Below are positions 14,804-63,858 of a stretch of DNA of 64,000 nt, one piece after another. Within the stretch, counting starts at the first letter, position 1. Each line of letters starts with the position of its first letter. The translations under genes were made by a program, and so were the position numbers. Origin of the DNA: Candidatus Iainarchaeum sp. (GTDB taxonomy: Archaea > Iainarchaeota > Iainarchaeia > Iainarchaeales > VGJJ01); assembly GCA_043803765.1 (NCBI GenBank), contig JAZDJQ010000012.1:109194-173193 (forward strand), written 5' to 3'. Below the pieces are notes generated by a model. It was given only the letters and a program-made list of their open reading frames with translations. It ran no database searches and was not told the DNA's origin.

Positions 14804-14963
14804 TACCACCAGGCGATAGTTTACTAGAATATAAAAATATGTTTAGAAAATGAAGACGGATACCTATAAACGGGTTGTTGGCATACTCATCCTGCCTATT
14901 AGAATCAAAAATAATGACCGGAAAGACAAACCTTTTTACAACTGCCTATTATGGAAATACATT

Positions 14964-15857
14964 ATGCCTTTGATTGAGGGTTTCGATATTGGTGGAACTT
15001 CTATTCGTGCAGCACTTATTAGAAATGAAAAAATGATTGCAAAAAAAACCATTCCAAGCACAAAAGAGGGACATGAAAAACTTTTTTCGACCATCCAAAT
15101 CCTTTCAAAGGAAATTAGAAGCAGCCTTGTTGATGAGAAAGTAGACTATACCGTGATTGGCCTTCCGGGCCCAACGCAAGATAGGGTGTTGCTTAATTCT
15201 GCAACACTTGGAATTGCCTCTCCTGTCTCGCTCGAACCGCTCTTTCATTTTTTTCCTAATCCCCTGCGTTTTGAAAATGATATGAAACTAGCAGTAAAAG
15301 CCGAGTATTTTCATGAACAAGGAAAGAAACAGGACTCATTTTATGTCCTAACATTTAGCACAGGGATTGGTGCTGGACTCGTATGGAATAAGAAAGTATT
15401 GGAAGGAACCATGGGAGAATTTGGCCATATCATATTGAACACTCACACAAAGTCTCCTGCATGTTCATTAGGGCACACGGGTTGCTGGTTTGCATATTCT
15501 TCTGGGTTTGGAATCCAGAAACGTGCTGAAAAAGAAATGAATCAGTCACTTTCCACGATCGATGTTTTTTCGTTAGCCAAAGAAGGAAATGCGATCGCTT
15601 CATCAATCATTTCAGATGCACGAAGAGCAAACGCTCAAGGGATTGGCACCATGTTGAATGTATTTGCAGTTGAACGGATAGTCGTGATGGGAAGTATTGG
15701 ATTGTCCCAATTTACTGAAATTATTCCAACGGTAAAAGAAATCCAGCCCTACACGATTCACCCTATTCCCTCCATCATTCCTACGAGTCTAGGAGATGAC
15801 ATTGGATTGTGGGGGGCATACTATTCGGGTGTTTCTTCTCTTTTAAAAAAAAGTTAA
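14964..15857 (+). CDS. ROK family sugar kinase
   Basis: GFDIGGT, GLPG, END, STGIGAG, GEFGH, CxxGHxGC. Confidence 0.9.
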   Translation: MPLIEGFDIGGTSIRAALIRNEKMIAKKTIPSTKEGHEKLFSTIQILSKEIRSSLVDEKVDYTVIGLPGPTQDRVLLNSATLGIASPVSLEPLFHFFPNPLRFENDMKLAVKAEYFHEQGKKQDSFYVLTFSTGIGAGLVWNKKVLEGTMGEFGHIILNTHTKSPACSLGHTGCWFAYSSGFGIQKRAEKEMNQSLSTIDVFSLAKEGNAIASSIISDARRANAQGIGTMLNVFAVERIVVMGSIGLSQFTEIIPTVKEIQPYTIHPIPSIIPTSLGDDIGLWGAYYSGVSSLLKKS

Positions 15858-15882: not shown

Positions 15883-16467
15883 TTATTTTAGGCATTGAAA
15901 ACGATAATACCCATATCCTTTCATTCCTAGGTATTTTACGTTGTCAAGTTTGAACCCTGCTTTTTGAAAAATAGATTTAATGTCTTTATCAAAAAACATT
16001 CGTGGATGCTCATCATATTGAACATTGTGAGTAGTCATAAAAAGTAATGAGAGATAGTTTCGCCAATTATTCAATAATGGAATTCCAATCACAATTACCG
16101 CACCCTTTTTACTTACACGGGTTAATTCTTTCAAAAATCCGTTTACTTGCCCCAAGTGTTCAAAAACATCAATAGCAATAATTTGCTCAAAAGAATTGTC
16201 GGGAAAAGGCCATTCATTGCGGGCATCAAAGCACACCGCTTCAATTCCTTCGGACTGAAGCAGCTTGACGGACGCACTCGAAATATCTCCACAAACTAAC
16301 TTGTGTATATGGGGTGTCTGTAATCGAGTCGTGATGCCCGAACCGATATTTAAAGTCGGAACATCGGCCAATCCGCTAAGAAATTTTTCATCGATTTTAG
16401 CTTTTCGCAACGCATGTTCCCGCTTTTCAGGACGATCAAAGTACTTCTCATAATCATAGTCCAGCAT
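15883..16467 (-). CDS. class I SAM-dependent methyltransferase
   Basis: LNIGSG, PFPDNSFE, DVFEHL. Confidence 0.85.
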   Translation of the reverse strand: MLDYDYEKYFDRPEKREHALRKAKIDEKFLSGLADVPTLNIGSGITTRLQTPHIHKLVCGDISSASVKLLQSEGIEAVCFDARNEWPFPDNSFEQIIAIDVFEHLGQVNGFLKELTRVSKKGAVIVIGIPLLNNWRNYLSLLFMTTHNVQYDEHPRMFFDKDIKSIFQKAGFKLDNVKYLGMKGYGYYRFQCLK

Positions 16468-16569
16468 ACTCTACGTAGACGCACTATCTTTTTTACACTA
16501 TCGATAACCCCAAAAAAATCGAATAACGATCGTATTCTCTAGCGATTCCCATGCAATAGAAAAATAAGG

Positions 16570-16589
16570 AGTCCCGCCTCCGGGACTTC
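16570..16589 (-). repeat. tRNA-Tyr 3'-end copy (att-like site, distal end of array)
   Basis: AGTCCCGCCTCCGGGACTTC. Confidence 0.8.
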
Positions 16590-16610
16590 ATCTCTAAAAA
16601 TACTCATTTT

Positions 16611-16769
16611 TCAAAATAAGGCATACACAAATGAGGAAACAGCTGCTGATTGTCCAATAAAAATAAGCAGTGCCACCAGCATAAGCAATACCACAATAGG
16701 CACTAACCACCATACTTTTCGCTTCCACAAAAACTGAAGTAGCCCATTTAAAACAGTTAGTCTGCCCAT
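16611..16769 (-). CDS. DUF5989 (SxtK-like) small membrane protein
   Basis: FLWKRKVWWLVPIVVLL...SSFVYALF. Confidence 0.85.
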   Translation of the reverse strand: MGRLTVLNGLLQFLWKRKVWWLVPIVVLLMLVALLIFIGQSAAVSSFVYALF

Positions 16770-16781
16770 AATGAAGATAGT

Positions 16782-17165
16782 ATGTCCTCCCATTTTAAAA
16801 ATCTAGGGATTTTGCTTGGATTTCTCCCCATTGGGATAATCATTTATGGATTTGTTTTTTCTTCCCCCTCTTTGGTTTTGCCATTCCTTTTGAGTGCCGT
16901 GGCAGTAAATATCCTGCTATTAGTTATTGCGCCGCGAATTTGGAAAAATCCTGCTTTATCCAAAATTAAAATGGGTGCGATGAGTGTTTTTAGTCTATTG
17001 AATAACATTATTGTTTCAGCGGTACTAGCAGTGGCATACGTTTTCAGCGTAGGCATCGTTTTTATTTTCTCCCGCATTATCGGAAAAAAATTCATGAATC
17101 TTTATCCAAAAAAAACGAGCTGGGTGAAAATTGAAAAAGCAAAAGAAGACTATTTGGAGATGTAG
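16782..17165 (+). CDS. SxtJ-like membrane protein
   Basis: hydrophobic, RIIGKKFM...TSWV tail, next to a carbamoyltransferase. Confidence 0.6.
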   Translation: MSSHFKNLGILLGFLPIGIIIYGFVFSSPSLVLPFLLSAVAVNILLLVIAPRIWKNPALSKIKMGAMSVFSLLNNIIVSAVLAVAYVFSVGIVFIFSRIIGKKFMNLYPKKTSWVKIEKAKEDYLEM

Positions 17166-17173
17166 GTGGCGCA

Positions 17174-18916
17174 ATGTACATACTTGGAGTTTCTGCATTT
17201 TATCATGATTCGGCTGCCTGCCTGATTAAAGACGGTGAGATTGTCGCCGCCGCTCAAGAAGAACGTTTCACGAGAAAAAAACACGATAACTCATTCCCAA
17301 AAAACGCAATTGCATATTGCCTCCGGCAGGCAGGCATTTCTCCCAAGGAGGTGAATAAAATTAGTTTTTATGAAAAACCTTATGTCAAATTTGAACGCCT
17401 TCTCTATCAATTTATTGAAACCTATCCAAAATCTTTCTCCACATTCATTGAAACCATCCCTATTTGGCTGAATGAACGGTTAAATGTACCCCAGCATTTT
17501 GAAAAAGAAGGTTTTCGTGCACCCATTCAATATGTGAGTCATCATCTTTCGCATGCAGCAGCCAGTTATTACACTTCCAAATTTGATAATGCGGCCATTC
17601 TCACTATGGATGGTGTAGGAGAATGGGCTACCACCACGATGGGTTTTGCAGAAGGAAATAATATCACACTCACCCATGAAATCCATTTTCCCCATTCGCT
17701 GGGATTGTTATATAGTGCCATTACTGCATATCTTGGTTTTTCAGTGAATAATTCCGAATACAAAGTCATGGGCTTAGCCCCTTATGGAAAACCCAAATAT
17801 AAGAGTGAATTTGACAAGCTCGTTCATGTGTATCCGGATGGCAGTTTCTCCCTCGATATGGATTATTTTGCCTTTACGTATGAAAAAAAAATGAATTCAA
17901 AAAAAATGGAGGAATTATTCAACCATCCCGCTCGAAAAAAAGAATCCGAAGTCACCCAATTCCACAAAGATGTGGCAGCCTCTCTCCAAACCAAAACTGA
18001 AGAAATCGTCATCAAGTTATGCAATGAATTATTTCATCAGACTAAAAAAGAAAATATTTGTTTGGGCGGGGGCGTGGCGCTAAATTCGGTTATTAATGGA
18101 AAAATTTTGACGCAAACGCCTTTCAAAAAAATATGCATCCAGCCCGCAGCAGGAGATGCCGGCAGCGCTATGGGCGCCGCGCTGCATGTATGGCACCATT
18201 ATTCTCCTCAGTCCCTGCGCCTTCCTTTCTCACACGCTTTCTGGGGACCGGGTTTCTCACAGGAAGAAGTAAAAAAATTTCTGGACCAGAAAAAAATAAA
18301 TTATTCCATGCTCAAAAATACACGGGAAATTGCTTCGCATACCGCTAAATTGATTCACGAAGGAAATATTGTGGGTTTTTTCCAAGGGAGAATGGAATGG
18401 GGCCCCCGCGCATTAGGGGCGCGAAGTATTTTGGCCAATCCTACAGACCCAAATATTAAAGATATATTGAACCAGAAAGTCAAGCACCGTGAACATTTTC
18501 GGCCGTTTGCACCGGTGATTCCTGTAGAGGATGCAAAAAATTGGTTTGATTGTGATTTGCCTCTCCCTGAGCCCGCTGATTACATGCTTATGGTGTACCC
18601 TGTCAAAAAATCCAAGCGCGAAAAAATTTTGGGAGTAGTCCACGTGGACGGCTCTGGAAGGTTACAAACCATTCGCAAAAACCAACACGCATTGTATTAT
18701 CAGACCATCCGCGAATTCGAAAAATTATCGGGGGTGCCGATTCTCATTAATACTTCTTTCAATATCCGTGGTGAACCCATTGTGTGCACTCCTGAGGATG
18801 CCTATCGCTGCATGATGGGAACAGGCATTGATTATTTGATGATTGAAAACTTCCTCGTGGCACGAAAAGACAACCTTCAAGATGCTTGGGATAGTGAAAA
18901 ACTAGCAAATGATTAA
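17174..18916 (+). CDS. NodU/CmcH family O-carbamoyltransferase
   Basis: YHDSAA, EERFTRKKH, HHLSHA, EYKVMGLAPYG, GPRALGARS, LINTSFN. Confidence 0.95.
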   Translation: MYILGVSAFYHDSAACLIKDGEIVAAAQEERFTRKKHDNSFPKNAIAYCLRQAGISPKEVNKISFYEKPYVKFERLLYQFIETYPKSFSTFIETIPIWLNERLNVPQHFEKEGFRAPIQYVSHHLSHAAASYYTSKFDNAAILTMDGVGEWATTTMGFAEGNNITLTHEIHFPHSLGLLYSAITAYLGFSVNNSEYKVMGLAPYGKPKYKSEFDKLVHVYPDGSFSLDMDYFAFTYEKKMNSKKMEELFNHPARKKESEVTQFHKDVAASLQTKTEEIVIKLCNELFHQTKKENICLGGGVALNSVINGKILTQTPFKKICIQPAAGDAGSAMGAALHVWHHYSPQSLRLPFSHAFWGPGFSQEEVKKFLDQKKINYSMLKNTREIASHTAKLIHEGNIVGFFQGRMEWGPRALGARSILANPTDPNIKDILNQKVKHREHFRPFAPVIPVEDAKNWFDCDLPLPEPADYMLMVYPVKKSKREKILGVVHVDGSGRLQTIRKNQHALYYQTIREFEKLSGVPILINTSFNIRGEPIVCTPEDAYRCMMGTGIDYLMIENFLVARKDNLQDAWDSEKLAND

Positions 18917-19012
18917 CTATCAAATACGGAGATTCCTTCTCTTGGAAAAAAAGTTGACAGATTAAAAATCCAAAAGCCACCCATTATAAAATTATAGATT
19001 TTTATAGGGTTT

Positions 19013-20113
19013 ATGCGCTCATCTGAGTATCCTACTCTTGTCATGGTAGTGCTTTTTTCATTTATTATTGGATTGTTTCTCGCCGAAGGACTGTTGATCG
19101 TTCTCAACATAGAACCTGCTCCCAATTTACTTTGCACATATATATCGGATGAAACACGCGGTCACGCATTATACCCAAATCTTTCCGGTCATTTTGTTTA
19201 TGAACCTGAAATCGACATGAACTTCACTATCAATAAATTAGGTATGCGCGGAAGTGAACCAGACGAAAAACTAAAAAAAATATTTTTGGCAGGAGATTCC
19301 GTTTCTTTCGGATACAGTGTGGATCAAAATGAATCGTTTGCCGCAAAAACAAATCAAGAAATAAAGAAATTCGGATATGAACTGCTCAACTTGGGAACCC
19401 CCGGTTATGGTTTGACACAATCACTTATTACCATTAAAAAAAATCTTGTGTTTAATAATCCCGAAATTGTAGTATTGGAAATAACTACTCCGAATGATTG
19501 GTCGGATGATTATACCTTCACCACTGTTGGACCTACTAACTGGGTGGATGAACAGCACTGTATGGTCAGCAAGCGCCCTGCTGGAGTCATTACCACAATC
19601 AAATCAATCGCTTACCGGAATTCAAGGCTGGCGCGGCTTATTAACAAAAACTTTCGCCAGGAAAATCTGATAGAATCCAACAATGTGATATCTGACAGCC
19701 TGTTGAAAGACCCAACCCAAATTGTGGTTCAGGCAAGACAGATACAACGCCAGCGTCTGAACGAATTTCGCGAGTTACAATCGCAATATCATTTCAAATC
19801 ACTCATCTTGCTTATTCCAAGTCGTATTGAAACCGATGAGGTTTTTTTTAATCAGACCATCCAGAATACTCGCCCGGCCAATGAATACAATCGTCGAGAA
19901 CAGATTGAATTTTATCTTGGGATTTGCAAGGAGATGGGTTTTGAATGCATTGACATGGGAAAGGCATTTGAGGAAGAATACCAATCCGAATCCGCATCAA
20001 CCGAATATTATAACCATAAAATTGACCATCATCCCAACAAAAAAGGAAACCTGTTCATTGCCGAAACACTGATACCGGAAATTGTCCAAAAAATTCAAGA
20101 AGATACAAATTAG
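19013..20113 (+). CDS. membrane-anchored SGNH/GDSL hydrolase
   Basis: N-terminal TM, GDSVSFG, NLGTPGY, ND, DHHPNKKG. Confidence 0.85.
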   Translation: MRSSEYPTLVMVVLFSFIIGLFLAEGLLIVLNIEPAPNLLCTYISDETRGHALYPNLSGHFVYEPEIDMNFTINKLGMRGSEPDEKLKKIFLAGDSVSFGYSVDQNESFAAKTNQEIKKFGYELLNLGTPGYGLTQSLITIKKNLVFNNPEIVVLEITTPNDWSDDYTFTTVGPTNWVDEQHCMVSKRPAGVITTIKSIAYRNSRLARLINKNFRQENLIESNNVISDSLLKDPTQIVVQARQIQRQRLNEFRELQSQYHFKSLILLIPSRIETDEVFFNQTIQNTRPANEYNRREQIEFYLGICKEMGFECIDMGKAFEEEYQSESASTEYYNHKIDHHPNKKGNLFIAETLIPEIVQKIQEDTN

Positions 20114-20167
20114 AATGGTTCATTTCTCAATAGCGTCATGCGTCATTCGTCAATAGCATAAAAGAGA

Positions 20168-20206
20168 TAGTCCCGCCTCCCGGACTCGCACACGGGTATC
20201 TTCCGG
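20168..20206 (-). repeat. tRNA-Tyr 3'-half copy (att-like site)
   Basis: TAGTCCCGCCTCCCGGACTCGCACACGGGTATCTTCCGG, matches tRNA 26606-26643. Confidence 0.9.
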
Positions 20207-20310
20207 CTTTATTCAAAGGTTCGGCTGTGGCCTCACAATTAGTGAAGTTAGTGCACATAGTGAATAATGGGATAGGCAAGCTCTTTATATGAAAATAATG
20301 CAATAGGGCT

Positions 20311-20937
20311 ATGTTTGAAAAATATCGCCCATTTTTACTGGGAGTTTCTCATTCTAAGGAAATGCTGTGGGATGTTTTTCAAGAGATTGACAAGGTAAAG
20401 CCAAAATCAATTGGAATAGAAGAATCAAAATGGTCTGTTGAGAACTGGAGACAAATTGGGTTGAACCCCCACCACGCTGGATTTTGGCGAGTATTGATTA
20501 GAGAGTGTAGAGCGCGAGGTATTGAAATAACGTACCTTACTCCTGATAGAGTTGCCCAACAAAATATCCGAGAACAACTTCGGTTGAAAAAACTGGGAAT
20601 TACCGCACAAAAGGTTCTTGAAAATCCACAAGGGCACACAGAAGGAAAGGAACTGTTACGACATATGCGCGATAAAACTACGGATGTCGTTGAAATGACT
20701 GCTCGGAAAAGACGTCCACAGATGCTTGTTTTGGGCTTATTTCATTCTGCTATTTTACGAAAAAACTTGGGCATTCCAAAAGCTCGATTTAGTGTCCATG
20801 TAGTCCCTTCGCCACGTGCGATAAGAGAGATGGGTGTTCGCGTTCCAAGAAGAAAATTAGAAGCGAGAAAAAAACAATTAATTGAAGGAATGCTTTTTCA
20901 TGTCAAAGGATACCGAAGAGCCGCTCGAAAAAGATAG
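20311..20937 (+). CDS. hypothetical protein, weak TraB/GumN-like N-terminus
   Basis: LLGVSH...KPKSIGIE, LGLFH; TTTATA 27 nt upstream. Confidence 0.6.
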   Translation: MFEKYRPFLLGVSHSKEMLWDVFQEIDKVKPKSIGIEESKWSVENWRQIGLNPHHAGFWRVLIRECRARGIEITYLTPDRVAQQNIREQLRLKKLGITAQKVLENPQGHTEGKELLRHMRDKTTDVVEMTARKRRPQMLVLGLFHSAILRKNLGIPKARFSVHVVPSPRAIREMGVRVPRRKLEARKKQLIEGMLFHVKGYRRAARKR

Positions 20938-20949
20938 AATTATTCTCAA

Positions 20950-21022
20950 TCCGGTCGTCGGGACGAAAGCGAAGCTTGAGTGTGTGAATGGATTAGTCCC
21001 GCCTCCCGGACTCGCAACCGGG
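20950..21022 (-). repeat. att-like site, near-identical to tRNA-Tyr 3' end plus trailer
   Basis: differs from 26562-26633 by 3 substitutions and 1 indel. Confidence 0.95.
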
Positions 21023-21029
21023 CTTTTAC

Positions 21030-21353
21030 TCACTTTCTCACCGGCGGGTTCGATTCGGCAATGAGGTCTATGCTGGCGAGTACTATCATCTTTTCCAAAA
21101 ACTTCTCATGCTCTTTCAGAATGACGTCTCCATTTGGAAGTTTTGTGATTTCGGCCATCGCACGGTCTCGACATGGCTTACTTTCCCAATCTGCAATAGC
21201 ATACAAAATGGATGGATTCTCCAAACTGCGGAACAGTTTTGTTCCCCTTGCACCCGGGTAAGTTTGAATAATGTCACTCCCCCACTGCCACTGCCGGATA
21301 AAGTCGGTTTCCTTGCCAGGAATGGGATGGTGCTCAAAAATAACGCGATACAT
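21030..21353 (-). CDS. ABM (antibiotic biosynthesis monooxygenase) domain protein
   Basis: PGKETDF...YPGARGTKLFRSLENP...ADWES. Confidence 0.8.
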   Translation of the reverse strand: MYRVIFEHHPIPGKETDFIRQWQWGSDIIQTYPGARGTKLFRSLENPSILYAIADWESKPCRDRAMAEITKLPNGDVILKEHEKFLEKMIVLASIDLIAESNPPVRK

Positions 21354-21369
21354 AGGTTCCTTCGCTTAA

Positions 21370-21594
21370 CTAAGCCATTTTCATAAACTCGTCTCGCTCC
21401 ATCTTGAGTTCGAACTTAATGATTTTGTTTAACAATCCAGGCGGAATGGGCTTGTTCGAATGAAAGGCAACTGTTAGAATTCGCCCATCCAAATGTTCAA
21501 ATGTTTTGTGTGACCCTTTTTGTCGCACTTCCAAAAAACCAAGTTTGTGCAGAATTTTGATTAAGTCTTGGGGATACAGAACGGATAATTTCAT
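21370..21594 (-). CDS. hicA: HicA toxin
   Basis: KLGFLEVRQKGSH...GLLNKIIK. Confidence 0.9.
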   Translation of the reverse strand: MKLSVLYPQDLIKILHKLGFLEVRQKGSHKTFEHLDGRILTVAFHSNKPIPPGLLNKIIKFELKMERDEFMKMA

Positions 21595-21608
21595 TTGAAA
21601 TCACCTAT

Positions 21609-21830
21609 TTACACAACCACTTTAACCATTCCAATAACCGATTCAACATCCACTTTGACTTTCTTTTTGACAAGCGTTTCTAAGTGCAAGGAAATTGCTT
21701 CCTTCATATTTTCTAACAATTCTTCAACAGTATCCGCATAGGAATAGCAACCGGGCAAAGCAGGGACTGAACCATAGTATTGTCCAGTTTCTGCATCTTT
21801 TTCGATAACCACATCGTAAGGTCTTGTCAT
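21609..21830 (-). CDS. hicB: HicB antitoxin (short form)
   Basis: VPALPGCYSYADTVEELLENMKEAI. Confidence 0.9.
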   Translation of the reverse strand: MTRPYDVVIEKDAETGQYYGSVPALPGCYSYADTVEELLENMKEAISLHLETLVKKKVKVDVESVIGMVKVVV

Positions 21831-21903
21831 AATACTACCCATACTACTATGAGAATAAAACCTTGCTTCCAGTAAACCGCCAAAAAGTGCTATTCATCCA
21901 TTC

Positions 21904-21960
21904 GGCGGGACGATTCATAAGCCTCAGGTGGTGATGGATTAGTCCCGCCTCCCGGGACTT
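21904..21960 (-). repeat. att-like site with inverted left arm
   Basis: GGCGGGACGATTCAT...ATGGATTAGTCCCGCCTCCCGGGACTT. Confidence 0.9.
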
Positions 21961-22085
21961 CAATGGAAAATATTCAGTATTATTCTTTTCCTCGCCTAAA
22001 ATATGTGCAGTGTACATCGTCCGCCGAATTTGACTGATGATCCCATCCATATATCTCTTTTATACCCAGAAACAATTGATTGGCC

Positions 22086-22835
22086 ATGGATTGGGTATTA
22101 TTGTTCATTGTTTTTCTAGTGGGACTCGGAACAACTTTCATCGGCGCGATTAGTGGGGGAGGGGGGCTTCTCATGCGACCCATTCTAATTTTTTTAGGTG
22201 TGCCCACCATCACTCTGATCGGCACTCCACGCGTGGCAGGAATATTGGGCGATTGGCCTGGATTGTTTTTGTTTCACAAGCATAAAAAAATCGATTGGAA
22301 TCTGGCCATATTCCTGACCATCCCTAACTTGATTGGAACCATCATCGCGGGGATGGTAGTCATAAGCTTGCCGACAGAGGCATTGGAATTATTTTTAGGA
22401 ATACTGCTCATCGTCTCGGGAGTGGTATTTTCGTTCAATAAAAATTTCGGATTGCTTGAACAAAAATCTCCCTTTTCCAAAATTGGACAAAACATCCTCG
22501 GATTTATCGGGACGAATGTCATATCCTTCGTTGGAACCATTACCGGTGGACTTGGCACACTCTACATCTCGTTCTACACGTTGATTTATGGTAAAAATTA
22601 CATCAACGCGGCTGGGTTGTGGCGCATCTCTTCCTATTTCGGAGGATTGGGCAGTTCGGTGGTATTTATCTGGAGTGGAATTGTCGACTGGCAACTCTGT
22701 CTGGTGCTGAGTGCAGGATTTTTGATCGGCTCCTATTTTGGGACGATTTACGGATTAAAAAAAGGGGTCGCGCGGGTCCGCTACCTTGTGATAGCACTCG
22801 CATTTGGCGCTGGAATAAAACTAATCCTATTTTAG
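22086..22835 (+). CDS. TauE/SafE (TSUP) transporter
   Basis: GAISGGGGLL, about 8 TM segments, GSYFG. Confidence 0.9.
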   Translation: MDWVLLFIVFLVGLGTTFIGAISGGGGLLMRPILIFLGVPTITLIGTPRVAGILGDWPGLFLFHKHKKIDWNLAIFLTIPNLIGTIIAGMVVISLPTEALELFLGILLIVSGVVFSFNKNFGLLEQKSPFSKIGQNILGFIGTNVISFVGTITGGLGTLYISFYTLIYGKNYINAAGLWRISSYFGGLGSSVVFIWSGIVDWQLCLVLSAGFLIGSYFGTIYGLKKGVARVRYLVIALAFGAGIKLILF

Positions 22836-22870
22836 GGAAAACGCCCAACCATAGATCAACGTATATTCAT

Positions 22871-22945
22871 CTCCCAAACCAGCACGCGAGGATTCTTTGT
22901 TCGAGGCCTCGCCTGAGGGCTCGCTGACGTTAGTGTAGTTAGTGC
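22871..22945 (-). repeat. degenerate att-like site plus shared cassette-end motif
   Basis: CTCCCaaACcaGCAC, then TTTGTTCGAGGCCTCGCCTGAGGGCTCG...TTAGTGTAGTTAGTGC (cf. 20208-20254). Confidence 0.6.
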
Positions 22946-22966
22946 TGTTCAACGAATGCATCTGTC

Positions 22967-23320
22967 TTACCTTTTCTTTATCTTGAACCGTTTATCATAA
23001 TCGGGGTGCGACTCAATAACTAACACGAAGCAAATGACTTCGATTTCTTGGCGGCGAATGGTAAAAAGCATTCGCCAGTATTGAGCGAGTCGAATTTTGA
23101 ATAGATTATCTACATCCAATTCTTTTGGAATATCTTTTTTGGAGACTACTTCTCCGCGCAGAGGGTCTTCTTTCAACCATTCAATCTTTTCATTAATCGA
23201 ACGCCAGAGGGTTTGATTTTCTGAACTCTTGATTCCTTTAGATTCTTCTTCAGTTACAAGTTTCTTCAGGCGTTCGTACTCTTCGAGAGCCTGACCAGTA
23301 AGGCGGACGCGTGCTTTCAT
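22967..23320 (-). CDS. RelE-like toxin
   Basis: LKEDPLRG...NLFKIRLAQYWRMLFTI...HPDYDKRF; ATGA overlap with upstream gene. Confidence 0.7.
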   Translation of the reverse strand: MKARVRLTGQALEEYERLKKLVTEEESKGIKSSENQTLWRSINEKIEWLKEDPLRGEVVSKKDIPKELDVDNLFKIRLAQYWRMLFTIRRQEIEVICFVLVIESHPDYDKRFKIKKR

Positions 23321-23583
23321 ACTTCCACGCTCGCATCCATCAATCGCTTCATTTTGTCTTTCGGAACATACACCCAAATAATGCCTTTGGGAGTGTCTAA
23401 AATCATAAAGCGCTTCTCCAAGTAATCTAAAATAACATCAAGAGTTGGGCGCATAATACGATTACCCGCTCGCTTTAGCAATTCATAACGGGAAAGAGGC
23501 TCTTTCGCCTCTTTGAGAATCTCTTCGACTAAAAGAACGGTTTTGAGAGTAGGGTAGTGTAGGACCTGCATAAACGTCACCAA
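23317..23583 (-). CDS. putative antitoxin / small winged-helix protein
   Basis: PTLKTVLLVEE...TLDVILDYLE; coupled to the RelE-like gene; ATG at 23571 is an alternative start. Confidence 0.65.
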   Translation of the reverse strand: MVTFMQVLHYPTLKTVLLVEEILKEAKEPLSRYELLKRAGNRIMRPTLDVILDYLEKRFMILDTPKGIIWVYVPKDKMKRLMDASVEV

Positions 23584-23644
23584 CTACACTACGATAGACA
23601 TATAACGCATATAAAGATATACCCTTAAACTCGCATTTCCAGTA

Positions 23645-24325
23645 TTACTTTATTGCCTTTAGCATTTCCACTGCACGTTTAGGGTCTCCCCTTCCTACTG
23701 GGAAATAACACGGGACCACATTGGTTTGATGATTGCCCACTTTTAATGGATAAGTTGCTAGTTTGCGTGATTGAACGAATTTATCATAATAGTCCTGTAA
23801 CCTGATTGTTTCTTGTGTGAGAAATGTAAATGGAATCAGCCCAAATGTGACAATGGTTTTGGGTTGAACTATCTCAATCTCCCTTCTCAAAATAGGTAGA
23901 AATAACTTAACTTTCTGTGCATCTGGCAATGTGGCGTCAGCTCCTGTCCATTTTACAATGTTAGTAAAGTAAAACGATTTTGAATCCAAGAAAGACCTAA
24001 CTTTTTCAGTAAATTCCAATGACCAATTAGGTTCTTTCTCAATTTGTTTCATCAGTTCGTCGTCAAATAATTCTGCACGATTAAAAATTCGCCAGACGGG
24101 CTTGGTTCCAATAAAAGGAAAACGAGGACCTTTCCATAAAGGACTTGAGCTAATATTATGGTGCGTTGGATTAATGAAAACAAACATGTAATTCGGACTC
24201 TCAACATGGCCGTTTCCTACAATGGGCATCAACCGATTTTCTGGAAAAAACGGTGTATGTGTGTCATTCACTATTTTCCATAAATCGTCTAACGAATGGC
24301 AATCTTCAGGACTCATAGGATACAA
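23645..24325 (-). CDS. uracil-DNA glycosylase superfamily protein (atypical)
   Basis: FVFINP, YFTNIVK, REIEIVQPKTIVTFG, CYFP. Confidence 0.75.
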   Translation of the reverse strand: MYPMSPEDCHSLDDLWKIVNDTHTPFFPENRLMPIVGNGHVESPNYMFVFINPTHHNISSSPLWKGPRFPFIGTKPVWRIFNRAELFDDELMKQIEKEPNWSLEFTEKVRSFLDSKSFYFTNIVKWTGADATLPDAQKVKLFLPILRREIEIVQPKTIVTFGLIPFTFLTQETIRLQDYYDKFVQSRKLATYPLKVGNHQTNVVPCYFPVGRGDPKRAVEMLKAIK

Positions 24326-24344
24326 ACCGTTCTTTGATATTTAA

Positions 24345-24410
24345 TCCGTCCGGCGGGACAAGTCTGAAGTGTGAAAGTTTGAGGTAATAGTCCCGCCTCC
24401 CGGTCCTGCA
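24345..24410 (-). repeat. att-like site with inverted left arm
   Basis: TCCGTCCGGCGGGACAA...TAGTCCCGCCTCCCGGTCCTGCA. Confidence 0.9.
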
Positions 24411-24419
24411 GTTATTTCT

Positions 24420-25394
24420 CTATTCAATGGATTCACCCAGCTTTTTGACAATAATCTCTTTATTTTCCTCAATAATTTGATGAATTTCTTTTCCACGATT
24501 CTCAAGGCACAAGTAAATGAATTTGGAGAACTTTGCATACTCTTTGGAAAGCTGAACCCGTTCAAGCAATGTAATGTAGCTCGCGCGATTGGAAAGGTTC
24601 ACAATCGCACGTGGAAAACCTTTTTTTTGGAGCATTCGATTGAGGATTTCCCTTCCTGTGCGTCCATTTCCATCCTCAAACGGGTGAATAAACTCAAAGC
24701 GGGCGTGAAATTCGGATGCTAATTCAAGCGGGTGCACTCTTTCGCTATTTTTCTCCATCCAATCTAACAATTTTTTTATTCCGCTTTCGACTTTATCAGC
24801 TGGAACTGGCCTTACTTTTGATGCAGTAATGAACATCGGCCCTGTTCGATACTTTCCAGGATGTTTCTCCGGAAATCCATCTAAAATAGCCGCATTGATT
24901 TTTTTGATGTTACGTTCATTGATTTCATTAATTTTCTTGGAAACCATTGCCGCTTTTTTCATATTTTCAATTTCTCTTATCTCATCTACTTTCTTTCCGG
25001 CAACGGAAGCCCCTTTCGTCAAAACTAACAGTGCTTCCTGCAAACTGAGCGAGTTTCCTTCCACAGAAGCACTTCCCTGTGCGTAACGCACGAATTCGTC
25101 TTCTTTAAATGATTCAAATCCGCTGGGAAAAAAATCCTCTAGGATAGAATAGTCTACTTTCAGTCGTTCCAAAGATAGAATTTCAGGAAAAGAGAGGATG
25201 TGCGACCGAAACTGTTCATGTGTTTGCTTAGCCCGTTCCAGTGCCTTCTTTTGAATGAACGTTTCAAGTCCTTCTTTCATTCTTCCGAAAGCCAGCCCCT
25301 TGTTTCCAAGAAGGACACTTATCCTCTTCTTTTCTACTCGGTCTTCTAAATAGAAGTAAGCCGTCCCCTTGATTGTGCGCTTTGAAATGAACAT
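24420..25394 (-). CDS. Fic family protein with N-terminal beta-rich domain
   Basis: HPFEDGNGRTGR; SASVEG inhibitory helix; KRTIKGTAYFYL N-terminus. Confidence 0.92.
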   Translation of the reverse strand: MFISKRTIKGTAYFYLEDRVEKKRISVLLGNKGLAFGRMKEGLETFIQKKALERAKQTHEQFRSHILSFPEILSLERLKVDYSILEDFFPSGFESFKEDEFVRYAQGSASVEGNSLSLQEALLVLTKGASVAGKKVDEIREIENMKKAAMVSKKINEINERNIKKINAAILDGFPEKHPGKYRTGPMFITASKVRPVPADKVESGIKKLLDWMEKNSERVHPLELASEFHARFEFIHPFEDGNGRTGREILNRMLQKKGFPRAIVNLSNRASYITLLERVQLSKEYAKFSKFIYLCLENRGKEIHQIIEENKEIIVKKLGESIE

Positions 25395-25459
25395 AGAACA
25401 AGTTAACACCAAAAAGGTTAAAAAATGGTATTTTTAGTAAATATGGTGTTAACCCACAA

Positions 25460-25609
25460 TTAGTTTTCCAAACCTAATTTGACGCCCTCTCTGATAATAC
25501 CATAAACGTGCCAAATATCACAGACTCCACAGGACGGAAAATAATCCGGGCAACGTTTTCCCCAGTATTTTCGAATATGTTTATTCAATTCAAGCAGAAC
25601 TTTCTTCAT
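25460..25609 (-). CDS. small Cys-containing protein
   Basis: MKKVLLEL...KRCPDYFPSCGVC; GGGAG SD. Confidence 0.45.
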   Translation of the reverse strand: MKKVLLELNKHIRKYWGKRCPDYFPSCGVCDIWHVYGIIREGVKLGLEN

Positions 25610-25904
25610 CTTCCTTAACTCCCTCGTCGAAGCACTTGTTGCATTCCCAATACTCAACCTTTCTCACCTTCCCAGTCCACCTGACTACATTGTGGCTTTT
25701 TCCACCCATTCGAAAAGTTCCAACTTTCACATGCTCACCCGTTCCCTCAATGGGAAATTTTAGTTTACTAAAGAAATGTCCTTTATCATAATGACCTGAT
25801 TTTGTTAGTCGAACCCACATCCACTTTCCACAAATCAAACATTTACGACGAATTTTTCGGACAAATTTAGCATTCTCGCGCGCATGAAAATGTTTTTCAG
25901 ACAC
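25590..25904 (-). CDS. small Zn-ribbon-like protein
   Basis: CLIC...WECNKC. Confidence 0.55.
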   Translation of the reverse strand: MSEKHFHARENAKFVRKIRRKCLICGKWMWVRLTKSGHYDKGHFFSKLKFPIEGTGEHVKVGTFRMGGKSHNVVRWTGKVRKVEYWECNKCFDEGVKEDEESSA

Positions 25905-25988
25905 CTTTTAAAAAGACCCCATTCAAAATAAAATCATATGCAAATTAATACACTATAGACGAATACCAGTTCGACAGTTAGACGGTTA

Positions 25989-26045
25989 TTATACTTCCAC
26001 GCTTCCATGGATCAGCTTCTTCATCTTATCGTTCGGAGCATACAA
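25989..26045 (-). pseudogene. 3' remnant of a paralogue of the 23317-23583 gene
   Basis: LYAPNDKMKKLIHGSVEV* vs VYVPKDKMKRLMDASVEV*, 11/18 identical. Confidence 0.75.
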
Positions 26046-26100
26046 CCTCCTGATACTCGCAACCGGGAAATTATATCCGAAGCCTCGTCTGCGGACTCGG
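26046..26100 (-). repeat. degenerate att-like site plus shared cassette-end motif
   Basis: CCTCCtgatACTCGCAACCGGG then TATATCCGAAGCCTCGTCTGCGGACTCGG. Confidence 0.7.
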
Positions 26101-26107
26101 AGGGCAT

Positions 26108-26530
26108 TTAATTATCCATCTTAAGCGCTTTAAGTTCAGTTTCAAGTTTTTTTACAAGGTCATTTAAGTCAGTATATTGGATGATTTTGTGTAAATTAGG
26201 AATACCCAAAACCATAGTTGATTTTGATAAATCAACAGTGTCTTTGGCAATGAGAATGAGTGGAATATCATTTTCGTATCCCATTTGAAGTTCCATTCCA
26301 ACACCATGAGAAGGACTACTTACTTCGGCGATAAATAAGTCGCATTTTGTAATGGTGTCAATTGTTCGCGTGTAAAACTGTTTTGGAGTTTCTTTTGAAT
26401 CCCAAAAATCGGGATAAGTACCTATAACTTTGTCATAGTATTTGCTACAAAGTTTAGCTATTCTTTTGTAAATAGGGAGATAATCCTGCCCAAAAAGAAA
26501 GATTGGTCCGAACACGTAAACGCTCGTCAT
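26108..26530 (-). CDS. nucleoside 2-deoxyribosyltransferase-like (Rcl/DNPH1-type) protein
   Basis: VYVFGPI, CDLFIAEVSSPSHGVGMEL. Confidence 0.85.
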   Translation of the reverse strand: MTSVYVFGPIFLFGQDYLPIYKRIAKLCSKYYDKVIGTYPDFWDSKETPKQFYTRTIDTITKCDLFIAEVSSPSHGVGMELQMGYENDIPLILIAKDTVDLSKSTMVLGIPNLHKIIQYTDLNDLVKKLETELKALKMDN

Positions 26531-26608
26531 AGTACTGCCACCTCAACCATGTATTTAACTGTCCGGTCGTCGGGACGAAAGCGAAGCTTGAGTCGGTGAA
26601 TGGATTAG

Positions 26609-26681
26609 TCCCGCCTCCCGGACTTGCACCGGGGATCTTCCGGTCTACAGCCGGACGCATTAGCTACTATGCTAAGGCGGG
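26609..26681 (-). tRNA. tRNA-Tyr(GTA), intronless
   Basis: CCCGCCT/AGGCGGG-A acceptor, TCCGG-CT GTA GA-CCGGA anticodon arm. Confidence 0.93.
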
Positions 26682-61646: not shown

Positions 61647-62624
61647 TCAATTGAGTCTCCGATGCTTTATCTGACTAAGGAATTCTTCATAGCAAAATTT
61701 AACAAAAAACGATTCGTTTCCCGATTCAACCGATCGAATAAGTTCTTTGAAGTAAGCCGCGGTATTCTTTGAAATATTCAGGATAGGATAGCCCGCATCT
61801 TGGAGAACTTTATTGAACAACAATCGGCACATGCGCTTGTTCCCATCCTTAAATGGGTGAATGAGATATAATTTCAAATGCACAAGCCCGGCCAGTTCTA
61901 ACGGATGAATATTCTTATTTTTATCCAACCATACAAAAAAAGTATCCAGCTCCTTCTCCACTTTGGCAGGAGCAGGCGGACGATAATCAATCTCCTCGCT
62001 TTTCATTGTCAATGGATTAAATCTGGCGATTATGCGTTGGTCGTCACGCAGCTGCCCAGGACTTTTGTCTTCGAAAGTTGTCATTACGATTCCATGTAAG
62101 CGCAGAATATCTTTCTTGTTCCATTGAATACTGGGTAAATAGTTGAATCCTGTAATCATCGAACTCGAAATAATAACTTTACTATCCATGGTTAGTTTCT
62201 TTTTTCGCTTATCAATAATTTCAAACGCGGTCTCGACATCGGCATAATCGACGTCCACTCCTTCCGTACGAAGAGTGGTAAAAACAAAATGAACGACTTG
62301 ATTCTTATCATATTCTTCTCTTTGTTTCTTGCTTAGTTTTTGAAAACGAGAAATAAAGTTATCCTTTACTTGCTCAACTCCGGCCAGTTCTTTTCTTGAA
62401 AGAATATAAAATTGATATTGATCAAGAATTTTATCGTATAGAGAAGTAAGAGTTTGTTTTACTTTCTCTTGCAGCTCTTTTTCTTTTTTCTTAAATTCAG
62501 TTTCAGAAGGCTTCGTTCTCCCAAGATAGAGACGAACCTTACGAACTTTTTTCCCGATACGATAACTTTTTCCCAAATAATAGTATTTGTTTCCTTTCAC
62601 CGTTCTTTCGATTATTTTACCCAT
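61647..62624 (-). CDS. Fic family protein with N-terminal beta-rich domain
   Basis: HPFKDGNKRMCR; ERTVKGNKYYYL. Confidence 0.92.
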   Translation of the reverse strand: MGKIIERTVKGNKYYYLGKSYRIGKKVRKVRLYLGRTKPSETEFKKKEKELQEKVKQTLTSLYDKILDQYQFYILSRKELAGVEQVKDNFISRFQKLSKKQREEYDKNQVVHFVFTTLRTEGVDVDYADVETAFEIIDKRKKKLTMDSKVIISSSMITGFNYLPSIQWNKKDILRLHGIVMTTFEDKSPGQLRDDQRIIARFNPLTMKSEEIDYRPPAPAKVEKELDTFFVWLDKNKNIHPLELAGLVHLKLYLIHPFKDGNKRMCRLLFNKVLQDAGYPILNISKNTAAYFKELIRSVESGNESFFVKFCYEEFLSQIKHRRLN

Positions 62625-62631
62625 AACAATA

Positions 62632-62704
62632 TGACTACATTTAAGTATATAAAATGTAGTCACAACTTGGAGACTACGTCATTTGAAACAAGTTGTAGTC
62701 ACAA
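62632..62704 (-). promoter_or_regulatory. TATA box flanked by inverted-repeat operator
   Basis: TGACTACATTT-9-AAATGTAGTCA; second TGTAGTCACAA at 62694. Confidence 0.7.
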
Positions 62705-62824: not shown

Positions 62825-63775
62825 CTAGTTTTCTTTTTTCATTTGAGCATAGTTTTCTTTTAGCTGTTCGACCAGAAAGTGAGTAAACGGGCCATATTCA
62901 GTACGATGCCCCTTTTCTTGGGTTTCAAAATAGGGATCACGTTTCAATACGGGAATATTGGTAAAGGGAAATCCATTGAACTGCAAAATATAGTTCATGA
63001 TTAATCGTGCCATTCGTCCGTTTCCATCCGCAAAGGGGTGAATAGTAGTGAACATGCAATGGGTCATGGCTGCGAGTTCAACAGGGTGTATTAAATCATT
63101 ATTTTTCTGATAATCTTCCATCATTTCTTTCATCATTTTGGGAACTTGAGAATGGGGAGGAAAATGAAACGAGCTCACACGAAGGAAAACGTTAACCGGA
63201 CGCCAGATTCCTTTGTATTGGTCGTAATCCGGAATTTTGTTTAGCAGAGTCGTATGCCATTCCAAAATGAGTTTTTCGTCTAACTCTCGTTTTTGAGTCA
63301 AGCTTTCTTCAAATTGAACGAGACACCGCTCCATGTTCAATACTTCCAAGCGTTCACGTTGGCTCCCCAACCGCGCCCCCAACCGAAGTATTCGCTGGGT
63401 TTCATCTAACGAGAGAGTGCTTCCCTCAATCGCATTCGTGTTAGTTATAAATTTATCTCGTTCGCGCTCAACCCATTGCTTCTTTTGTTTAGCACTTAAT
63501 TGATCGAGAAACAATTGTGTTTCTTGCTTAATGGCTTCCAGCTTGACTGCAGTCTTGACATCAATAAAACGAGTTTTGGATTTTAATAATTGTTCTCGAT
63601 AAAAAGATTTAACTTTTTGGTCGAGCTTTTTTCTAAACGACGCTAATTTTGATTTAGCCGGATTAATAGCCCCTAAATAGAGATACACCTTTCGAACTTT
63701 TTTCCCGATGCGGATACTCCGTTCCAGATAGTAGTATGGTTTCCCTTTCACGGTTCGCTGAATGACCTTTCCCAT
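62825..63775 (-). CDS. Fic family protein with N-terminal beta-rich domain
   Basis: HPFADGNGRMAR; TNAIEG; QRTVKGKPYYYL. Confidence 0.92.
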   Translation of the reverse strand: MGKVIQRTVKGKPYYYLERSIRIGKKVRKVYLYLGAINPAKSKLASFRKKLDQKVKSFYREQLLKSKTRFIDVKTAVKLEAIKQETQLFLDQLSAKQKKQWVERERDKFITNTNAIEGSTLSLDETQRILRLGARLGSQRERLEVLNMERCLVQFEESLTQKRELDEKLILEWHTTLLNKIPDYDQYKGIWRPVNVFLRVSSFHFPPHSQVPKMMKEMMEDYQKNNDLIHPVELAAMTHCMFTTIHPFADGNGRMARLIMNYILQFNGFPFTNIPVLKRDPYFETQEKGHRTEYGPFTHFLVEQLKENYAQMKKEN

Positions 63776-63778
63776 AAT

Positions 63779-63858
63779 AGTTATACCCACAAAGAAGTAT
63801 ATAAAATGTGGTTATAACTTTTGTAACTACAATTCTTCTTCTATTTTATAGTTATAAC
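63779..63858 (-). promoter_or_regulatory. TATA box flanked by inverted-repeat operator
   Basis: AGTTATACCCACA / TGTGGTTATAACT (12/13) plus a second weaker pair. Confidence 0.65.

Follow-up and report, generated by a model that had tools for sequence, protein, structure and literature searches.

The cassette island at the tRNA-Tyr gene

The DNA analysed here (the window) is a stretch of 64,000 nucleotides of Candidatus Iainarchaeum sp. (assembly GCA_043803765.1, contig JAZDJQ010000012.1, positions 109,194 to 173,193), in which an island of about 10 kb (16569-26626) lies behind a tRNA-Tyr gene. The island consists of at least six integrase-less cassettes, separated by copies of the tRNA 3' end. 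At four of the junctions this copy is followed, about 30 nt further on, by an inverted copy of itself, and the possible role of this inverted arm (IA) is the main subject of this work. The source genome (G000; G-numbers stand for genomes and L-numbers for loci) has 1.02 Mb in 19 contigs and is 93.5% complete; GatD and class III signal peptides are among its archaeal markers.

The tRNA-Tyr acceptor stem has the archaeal-type C1-G72 pair, and the last ~21 bases of the gene constitute the core shared by the junctions. The complement of the tRNA-Tyr 3' end, TAGTCCCGCC, occurs eight times in the window at up to one mismatch, when 1.57 matches were expected, and none of 100 shuffles reached that number. 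Six copies are direct (16569, 20168, 20994, 21940, 24388 and 26606, the last being the tRNA itself) and two are inverted (21904 and 24352). An intact tRNA-Tyr gene with five more end copies downstream is the arrangement of a tRNA gene whose end copies bound inserts. The core is in turn a dyad, AGTCC-N8-GGACT, which fits inverted half-sites round a 6-8 bp crossover region and is the form expected for a duplex tyrosine-integrase site with a crossover region of 7-8 bp. Starting at the tRNA gene and moving outward, the following features were found:

26608..26681, minus strand: tRNA-Tyr(GTA), the anchor of the island (ARAGORN; Rfam RF00005, 63.2 bits)
26562..26622, minus strand: junction J0, with core 26622-26608 (the tRNA end), spacer type A 26607-26577 and IA 26576-26562
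24405..26561, minus strand: cassette a, between J0 and J1 (Pfam)
Genes of cassette a: nucleoside deoxyribosyltransferase-like gene 26108-26530; open reading frame (ORF) of 104 aa 25590-25904; Fic/DOC 24420-25412
24345..24404, minus strand: junction J1, with core 24404-24390, spacer type B 24389-24360 and IA 24359-24345
22866..24344, minus strand: cassette b (Pfam; alignment)
Genes of cassette b: UDG-family gene 23645-24325; 88-aa ORF 23317-23583; overlapping 136-aa ORF 22967-23377
~22866-22990: decayed seventh junction, with a left arm bearing CACTAAC repeats at 22930-22944 and a degenerate core at ~22880-22866
21957..22865: cassette c, with a TauE/SafE-type membrane protein gene 22080-22835 on the plus strand (Pfam)
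21897..21956, minus strand: junction J2, with core 21956-21942 containing the AGTCCCG/CGGGACT dyad, spacer type C 21941-21912 and IA 21911-21897
21011..21896, minus strand: cassette d, with HicB 21609-21842, HicA 21370-21594 and an ABM-domain gene 21030-21353 (Pfam)
20950..21010, minus strand: junction J3, with core 21010-20996, spacer type A 20995-20965 and IA 20964-20950; near-identical to J0
20181..20949: cassette e, with a 208-aa ORF 20311-20937 on the plus strand, without family match
20168..20180, minus strand: junction J4, a core copy preceded by some 40 nt of tRNA-like sequence and not followed by an IA
16582..20167, plus strand: cassette f (Pfam)
Genes of cassette f: weak GDSL-like 366-aa ORF 19013-20113; carbamoyltransferase 17174-18916; 127-aa ORF 16782-17165
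16569..16588, minus strand: junction J5, the outermost tRNA-end copy, AGTCCCG GAGG CGGGACT, without IA

The Pfam search of the window found cargo-type genes between the copies and no integrase or recombinase, and the genes of the island lie in both orientations. The decayed junction, which was absent from the list of the sequence-only reading, splits the interval 21950-24388 into the UDG and the TauE cassettes. J0 and J3 have their core, spacer and IA in common and are unrelated directly past the IA. At the end of cassette e there is a left arm, in which three 9-bp repeats of the CACTA type (~20239-20262) are accompanied by a stretch similar to the anticodon stem and T-arm of the tRNA. Chromosomal genes take over again past 16569, first a methyltransferase gene (15883-16467) and then a ROK gene (14850-15857); the ROK flank is also present beyond the array of G016, with a 75% match to L037. 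Cassette b is also found in G016 (88% identity to L037 over 1511 nt), and the HicAB part of cassette d is 77% identical to locus L013 of G006.

When the 14 unassigned ORFs of cassettes and elements were compared with PHROGs, the sole match was that of the G016 integrase. The 88-aa ORF (23317-23583) has counterparts of 80-87% DNA identity in the arrays of five or more other genomes (L034, L035, L039, L040, L041). In G001 it is located upstream of a ParE-toxin gene, and the arrangement is probably a toxin-antitoxin pair carried along with the cassettes; the partner ORF in the window (22967-23377) gave no Pfam match. The window holds three Fic/DOC genes in all, the one in the island (24420-25412) and two adjacent ones near the window end (61647-62663 and 62825-63790).

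The inverted arm, the spacer and the cassette edges

The IA was defined as the 15-nt inverted copy of the tRNA-Tyr 3' end, read on the tRNA strand (minus). In the scan for inverted copies, the last 15 tRNA-like bases of every site were compared with the 90 nt downstream, with 5000 shuffles per site. The IA matched 12 of 15 bases at +31 in sites 26606 and 20994 (equalled by 4 and 8 of the 5000 shuffles, respectively), 11 of 15 at +30 in site 24388 (6 shuffles), and 10 of 15 at +30 in site 21940 (138 shuffles). Sites 20168 and 16569 have no IA, their best inverted matches (7/15 and 6/15) lying inside the shuffle range. The sequence-only reading had pointed to four sites with an inverted core copy about 30 nt away, and these are the four; the arm that it placed at 20956 is real, with its true start at 20957. 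It had also reported that 20950-21022 and 26562-26633 differ at four positions, which correspond to three substitutions and one indel, and that AGTCCCG/CGGGACT mini-hairpins occur at 16570 and 21941; both are present, and at 21941 the mini-hairpin is what the site folds into at minimum energy.

An alignment (A2) was made of 24 distinct core+spacer+IA sites from the window, congener loci and metagenome contigs. Three of the 27 candidate sites (L009, L011 and L034 position 6623) were left out, since their IA had three mismatches and the spacer was either unrelated or of unusual length (22 or 25 nt). The conserved IA block occupies exactly 15 columns, past which information drops sharply; most IA positions are conserved in 22-24 of the 24 sites, and the DNA just past the IA is unrelated between cassettes. 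The consensus, GTCCCG-M-CG-R-M-CGGA, has the form GTCC-N8-GGA, which is the dyad layout of the core mirrored. Within its own genome the IA motif is found at the four junctions only, the other near-matches being reverse complements of tRNA-like cores. The exact IA pattern gave 13 matches in 17 genomes of the genus, 11 of them about 30 nt past a core, against 1 for the reversed control. No solo IA copies were found in those genomes: the two exact matches that lie outside arrays (L143, L148) are not preceded by a core and appear to be unrelated. Directly past the IA, at 26606 and 24388, there is a TATA-like TTAAATA. A general promoter role for the IA was considered and rejected, as the TATA-like box of 21940 lies about 40 nt further on.

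It had been stated that the arms are conserved while the spacers differ. The first part holds; the second is half true, as the spacers belong to three or four homologous types, with invariant positions that include T33 and A43 (24/24), and measure 28-33 nt across the 24 sites, with a mode of 30-31. Inversion of the spacer between the inverted dyads was rejected, given that every spacer keeps its TAAT.. end beside the core. Over their first 12-20 nt the spacers look like native tRNA trailers, namely those of G012 and of the outermost junctions of arrays, and type A contains a 4-bp mini-hairpin in which three of the four pairs are changed on both sides. Two congeners (L020, L024) present an empty site, where the tRNA-Tyr gene is followed by its native trailer, with no insert and no IA; in an empty site a small hairpin of the native trailer, AGTC-TTCG-GACT, lies roughly as far from the tRNA end as the mini-hairpin does. 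The trailer-like start and the mini-hairpin at a similar distance suggest that the spacer imitates the tRNA trailer; they lend no support to the long arm-to-arm helix.

The same observations lend some support to an explanation at the RNA level, according to which the tRNA-Tyr trailer would pair with the acceptor 3' strand, or guide 3' processing or termination; pairing that affects pre-tRNA processing had been offered as an alternative by the sequence-only reading. The empty sites share the tRNA end and have no IA, and the processing reading therefore fails. Furthermore, IA is present at three internal junctions without a functional tRNA, its pairing with the acceptor would compete with the tRNA fold, the mini-hairpin of the type A spacer is absent from types B and C, and between 16000 and 27500 no Rfam family other than tRNA was detected (E up to 1). 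Altogether we consider an action of the IA on the RNA highly improbable.

The comparison of common cassettes shows where they begin. The UDG cassettes of the window and of G016 are identical from the first bases of the IA through about 40 further non-coding bases, and 90% identical over 200 nt from the IA, with spacers at 53% and unrelated DNA upstream. In the NUDIX cassettes of G002 and G006 the identity is 86% from the IA onward and 63% in the spacers, and the upstream DNA is again unrelated. The HicAB cassettes of the window and G006 follow a similar pattern, with an edge that is fuzzy at 77% identity. Moreover, spacers that are at least 87% identical recur between unrelated flanks, and type A occurs with both IA variants. 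From these alignments each junction appears as a three-way mosaic of flank, core, spacer, and IA plus cassette. A mosaic of this kind implies that a crossover in the core would not suffice by itself: either exchange can also occur at the IA, or short conserved blocks were used for homologous exchange. The IA looks like a second recombination junction because it always accompanies a core, marks a sharp edge of the site and is the place where two cassettes start behind different spacers.

At the opposite end, the left arm of many cassettes has two or three CACTAAC repeats 9 bp apart, GCGAG-rich DNA and a tRNA copy from the anticodon region on. The exact pattern CACTAAC-NN-CACTAA had six matches in the 17 genomes, all beside array junctions. 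Integrase elements of other genera show 9-bp periodic GTTAGTAGT-type repeats right past the tRNA. By analogy, both kinds of repeat look like arm-type binding sites of complex att sites, a putative assignment. The cassettes of the island are flanked by att copies and have no integrase of their own, and the same cassettes recur in other array settings in further genomes.

Integron attC sites recombine as folded single strands. On these grounds the sequence-only reading had proposed structure-based sites at the junctions. In the model that follows from it, the tRNA-end arm and the IA would pair in single-stranded DNA, the folded hairpin would be the recombinase substrate, and the island would be an integron-like array seated on a tRNA instead of an attI. 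An inverted repeat of 10-12 matching bases in 15 at a constant distance is what such a model calls for, and the short integrase-less cassettes with toxin-antitoxin and Fic cargo, together with spacer modules that shuffle relative to both flanks, are in line with it. The common cassettes begin at the right arm, as integron cassettes do in the right-hand core site; however, their homology begins at the loop-side edge of the IA and not at the stem base as in attC. Folding of both strands placed the arm-to-arm helix, GGCGGGAC/GTCCCG, in the minimum free energy structure of 6 of 8 single strands, with z-scores of only -0.8 to -2.7. A single-strand fold is possible, not striking.

Covariation was gauged by counting the stem pairs changed on one or both sides in the 24-site alignment. 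In this larger set the arms are conserved and covariation is absent: none of the 15 pairs changed on both sides, seven vary on one side and seven depart by unpaired cells only, and 71.9% of the cells pair. The central column pairs 10/65 and 11/64 never pair. The G at column 64, in the IA, is invariant in 24/24 sites though it is unpaired in the hairpin model and faces an A, which argues that sequence, and not pairing, is what is conserved. The invariance of the left arm follows from its being the tRNA itself. It should be added that a G to T mutation in a core of L034 has no compensating change in the IA.

Other properties of integron sites are missing as well. The centre of variable length seen in integrons is replaced by a loop of fixed length (28-33 nt) with invariant bases. 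Pairs of RYYYAAC...GTTRRRY with a gap of 40-130 nt were not found on either strand between 16000 and 27500 (0, against a shuffle mean of 2.3), nor within 120 nt of the six junctions. The model of integron integrase, TIGR02249, reached at best 115.8 bits in the own genome, below its cut-off of 265, and thus no IntI above cut-off was detected in a genome that is 93.5% complete; that best match is a 294-aa Xer-like gene and skips model positions 183-236. The two orientations of the genes also speak against such an array. The attC-like model, whose positive support comes down to the inverted repeat, we judge quite unlikely. What stands of the proposal is that these are att-type recombination sites with a conserved inverted arm; recombination of folded single strands is not supported. 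A further reading would be a tRNA-anchored, integron-like gene-capture platform of this DPANN genus, in which a bipartite site of about 65 bp, the tRNA-end dyad plus its mirror 30 nt off, bounds non-autonomous cassettes. Exchange would occur at either dyad, possibly in folded or cruciform form, and would shuffle cassettes and spacer modules with no integron integrase. This we also see as unlikely.

Arrays, insertions and integrases in related genomes

Of 16 congeners, 15 have the exact core 11-mer, which also turned up in 5 of the 24 genomes taken from other families; controls with the reversed pattern stayed near 0. Clusters of core copies were observed in G002 (L034, at least eight junctions), G004 (four and three, L035 and L036/L153) and G016 (three), and also in G001, G006, G007, G011 and G015. 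Outside the island, the source genome has two copies similar to the tRNA-Tyr end. The one at G000:C9:5752-5767 has T-arm-like bases upstream, and the one at G000:C15:3606-3616 is a bare 11-mer some 190 nt ahead of tRNA-Leu(gag); they may be left over from old att sites or have arisen by chance.

One insertion could be followed through its joints. The metagenome contig L083 carries the tRNA and directly behind it spacer A, IA and the UDG cassette. In L084 and in G016 (L037) the L083-like DNA is 100% identical and is preceded by the end of an 8.1-kb integrase element, which holds a 350-aa Phage_integrase gene and no IA; the other joint is found in L087 and L015. All three joints of this insertion have in common a block of 21 bp, CAAGTCCGGGAGGCGGGACTA. 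Since the joints share just this block, the crossover occurred within the tRNA-end core. A recent insertion at the tRNA-end core by an element without IA is a further point against the attC-like model. The exact core 15-mer was searched in viral contigs as well, and its 30 loci were all GC-richer (0.44-0.68, against 0.42 in the window) and without the flanks of the site, so no free attP was found there.

In both G016 and G001 a 350-aa Phage_integrase gene lies directly after the tRNA-Tyr. The family of the G016 integrase was detected in 82 of 196 genomes of the order (E up to 1e-30), and of the 30 best integrase loci 10 were next to a tRNA-Tyr according to ARAGORN, in many cases an intron-bearing one; the tRNAs of three more were called as Asn with intron, yet have Tyr-like ends. 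The own genome possesses three tyrosine recombinases. One is the Xer-like gene mentioned above, and two are homologous to the G016 integrase (38% and 31% identity), the 38% one being beside a tRNA-Met. A search with the Resolvase family revealed no serine recombinase in this genome.

The integrated reading frame of the G016 and G001 integrases (L037:4275-5327, L042:2691-3743) extends back through the 3' half of tRNA-Tyr to an ATG inside the tRNA, and in G001 a TTG located 12 nt past the tRNA end precedes the conserved DDIY motif. A partitioned integrase of the SSV type was rejected, because the circular form has an in-frame TAG three codons ahead of those of the core (GGA GGC GGG) and lacks a start codon in front of the core. 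The tRNA-Tyr genes beside related integrases of other genera have introns of 37-120 nt (L117, L119-L122, L126, L128, L132). Some cassette left arms of the window genus show 7-9 extra bases right past the anticodon, as if they came from an intron-bearing tRNA-Tyr.

These integrase genes bear on the main sober rival to a working IA, namely that it would be a functionless remnant of an ancestral element, for instance of the first codons or the promoter of a lost integrase, inherited by the cassette family, and that the mosaic of flank, spacer and cassette would come from ordinary homologous exchange at short conserved blocks. Genes of the integrase family start 12-90 nt past the tRNA end, and in L109, a distant integrase element, an inverted match of 11/11 bases, GTCCCGACGAC, lies about 50 nt past the tRNA end inside the first integrase codons, where it covers the P-D-D codons of the N-terminal DDIY motif. 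The arm of this element keeps the fixed form of the motif. The TTAAATA boxes past two of the IAs would also agree with an old promoter. However, the resemblance in L109 is a single case, and no integrase remnant was found past the IA in 20 array sequences (the window region plus 19 loci), the short matches of that search being a tRNA-encoded artefact of an over-extended ORF. The IA also stays conserved amid unrelated downstream DNA, when a neutral relic should decay like its surroundings. We regard the relic origin, and likewise the purely homologous origin of the mosaic, as possible though doubtful.

Repeats were also observed at other tRNA genes of the source genome. About 770 nt downstream of tRNA-Phe (G000:C1:55758-56700) there is a copy of its last ~30 bases, and this repeat pair encloses one small cassette, which has no inverted arm and whose ORF lies on the opposite strand. 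Seven other tRNAs are followed by inserts: Lys-ctt, Lys-ttt, Arg-tct, Arg-ccg, Leu-cag, Pro-cgg and Gln-ctg (loci C1:48830-49080, C1:49979-50380, C7:2800-3061, C18:91702-91960, C18:92891-93190, C18:114210-114486 and C2:10421-10650). Six of the inserts measure 60-110 nt, the one after Lys-ttt about 210 nt, and each holds a GC-clamped A/T hairpin (..CCCCGGG..TTTT..AAAAGGCCGG) and then a tRNA copy from the T-loop to the 3' end. They look like miniature T-loop-targeting elements or att scars.

Probable origin of the island and proposed role of the inverted arm

The explanation that we hold to be probable, with restrained confidence, is that of tandem insertions at tRNA-Tyr, with the IA as an accessory duplex recombinase site that also serves as an exchange point. 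Small circular elements would have been inserted repeatedly and site-specifically into the 3' end of tRNA-Tyr. Each insertion would re-create the tRNA end and push older inserts outward, which is why every junction keeps about the last 20 bases of the tRNA. Most inserts are non-autonomous cassettes, with one to three cargo genes each and no integrase, and would therefore depend on an integrase supplied in trans; candidate helpers are either the integrases linked to tRNA-Tyr in congeners or one of the two related ones in the own genome. One cassette family shares a conserved composite site, made up of the CACTAAC left arm with its tRNA-like stretch, the core, the spacer of 28-33 nt and the IA. 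In this arrangement the predicted role of the IA, a mirror of the core, is to bind a recombinase on duplex DNA as a second, accessory site; it marks the cassette-side edge of the composite site and could serve as an exchange point between cassettes. For this specific double role of the IA, a prediction drawn from the alignments, we see the chances as about evenly balanced.

Several points weigh against this explanation. Neither the island nor the part of the contig within the window contains an integrase, and the integrases of the own genome are candidates only. The integrase elements at tRNA-Tyr in G016 and G001 have no IA, and 22 of the 24 integrase-adjacent tRNA trailers in the order have no inverted copy of the tRNA end; hence no helper with an IA-type site is known, with the distant L109 as a possible exception. 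A gap of 30 bp between two binding dyads is not a standard layout for tyrosine recombinases. The edges at the IA come from two clear cassette pairs and one fuzzy pair, and homologous exchange at short conserved blocks could give a like pattern. Finally, the binding of a protein, the point of cleavage and the circular intermediate are features predicted from the DNA.

The island and its joints are ordinary in kind, as tandem accretion at a tRNA gene is known in archaea and in Prochlorococcus. Archaeal tRNA genes have been described with tandem integrated elements, non-partitioning (pNOB8-type) tyrosine integrases and integrase-less remnants (PMC8371274). As far as the available part of that source goes, the island resembles the pNOB8-type elements in the tRNA 3' target, the direct end repeats, the tandem inserts, the many elements without integrase and the importance for the site of bases outside the common block. 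Unlike them, its inserts are very small (0.8-3.6 kb) and belong to one family with a conserved composite site, and a second, inverted core copy at +30 nt was not found described in that part of PMC8371274.

Tycheposons build islands at tRNA genes of Prochlorococcus (bioRxiv 10.1101/2020.12.28.424599). According to the part of the preprint available to us, these islands likewise have a tRNA anchor, older elements pushed outward, partial tRNA copies between the units, degraded elements that are kept, and niche or defence cargo. Tycheposons have their own integrase and often replication genes, whereas most units of the island have neither; in addition, the host here belongs to DPANN, and a site with an inverted arm is not described in that part of the preprint.

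As in integrons and in the archaeal clusters of attC sites lacking integron integrases (CALINs), to judge from the available part of PMC9668308, there are short cassettes, imperfect inverted repeats of about 60 nt, arrays without integrase, and toxin-antitoxin cargo; the words tRNA and Iainarchaeota are absent from the main text of that article. In contrast to integrons, the island has no IntI, no attC consensus and no covariation, one arm is the tRNA end, the centre is fixed and the orientation is mixed.

The less ordinary part is the integrase-less cassette family, whose conserved composite site has a mirrored core copy at its end. Two bacterial systems offer leads, and leads only. The cis-mobilizable elements (CIMEs) found beside streptococcal integrative and conjugative elements (ICEs) are flanked by att sites, have no integrase and rely on the enzyme of their neighbour. 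The resolution site of Tn4430 TnpI has extra recombinase-binding motifs on one side of the crossover core. To our knowledge, neither of them involves the dyad of a tRNA 3' end with a mirror copy at +30 nt.

The genomes of DPANN archaea are tiny, and little is known on how they gain genes. At this locus one tRNA gene gathers cassettes with toxin-antitoxin systems, Fic, DNA-repair glycosylases, transporters and sugar-modifying enzymes. The cassettes vary from genome to genome, and the tRNA-Tyr locus is therefore a main site of gene flux in the genus. If the second dyad is not an exchange point, the locus would still be a clean natural example of tRNA-anchored island growth; if it is a working one, it would allow cassettes to be shuffled in a simple way, without integrons.

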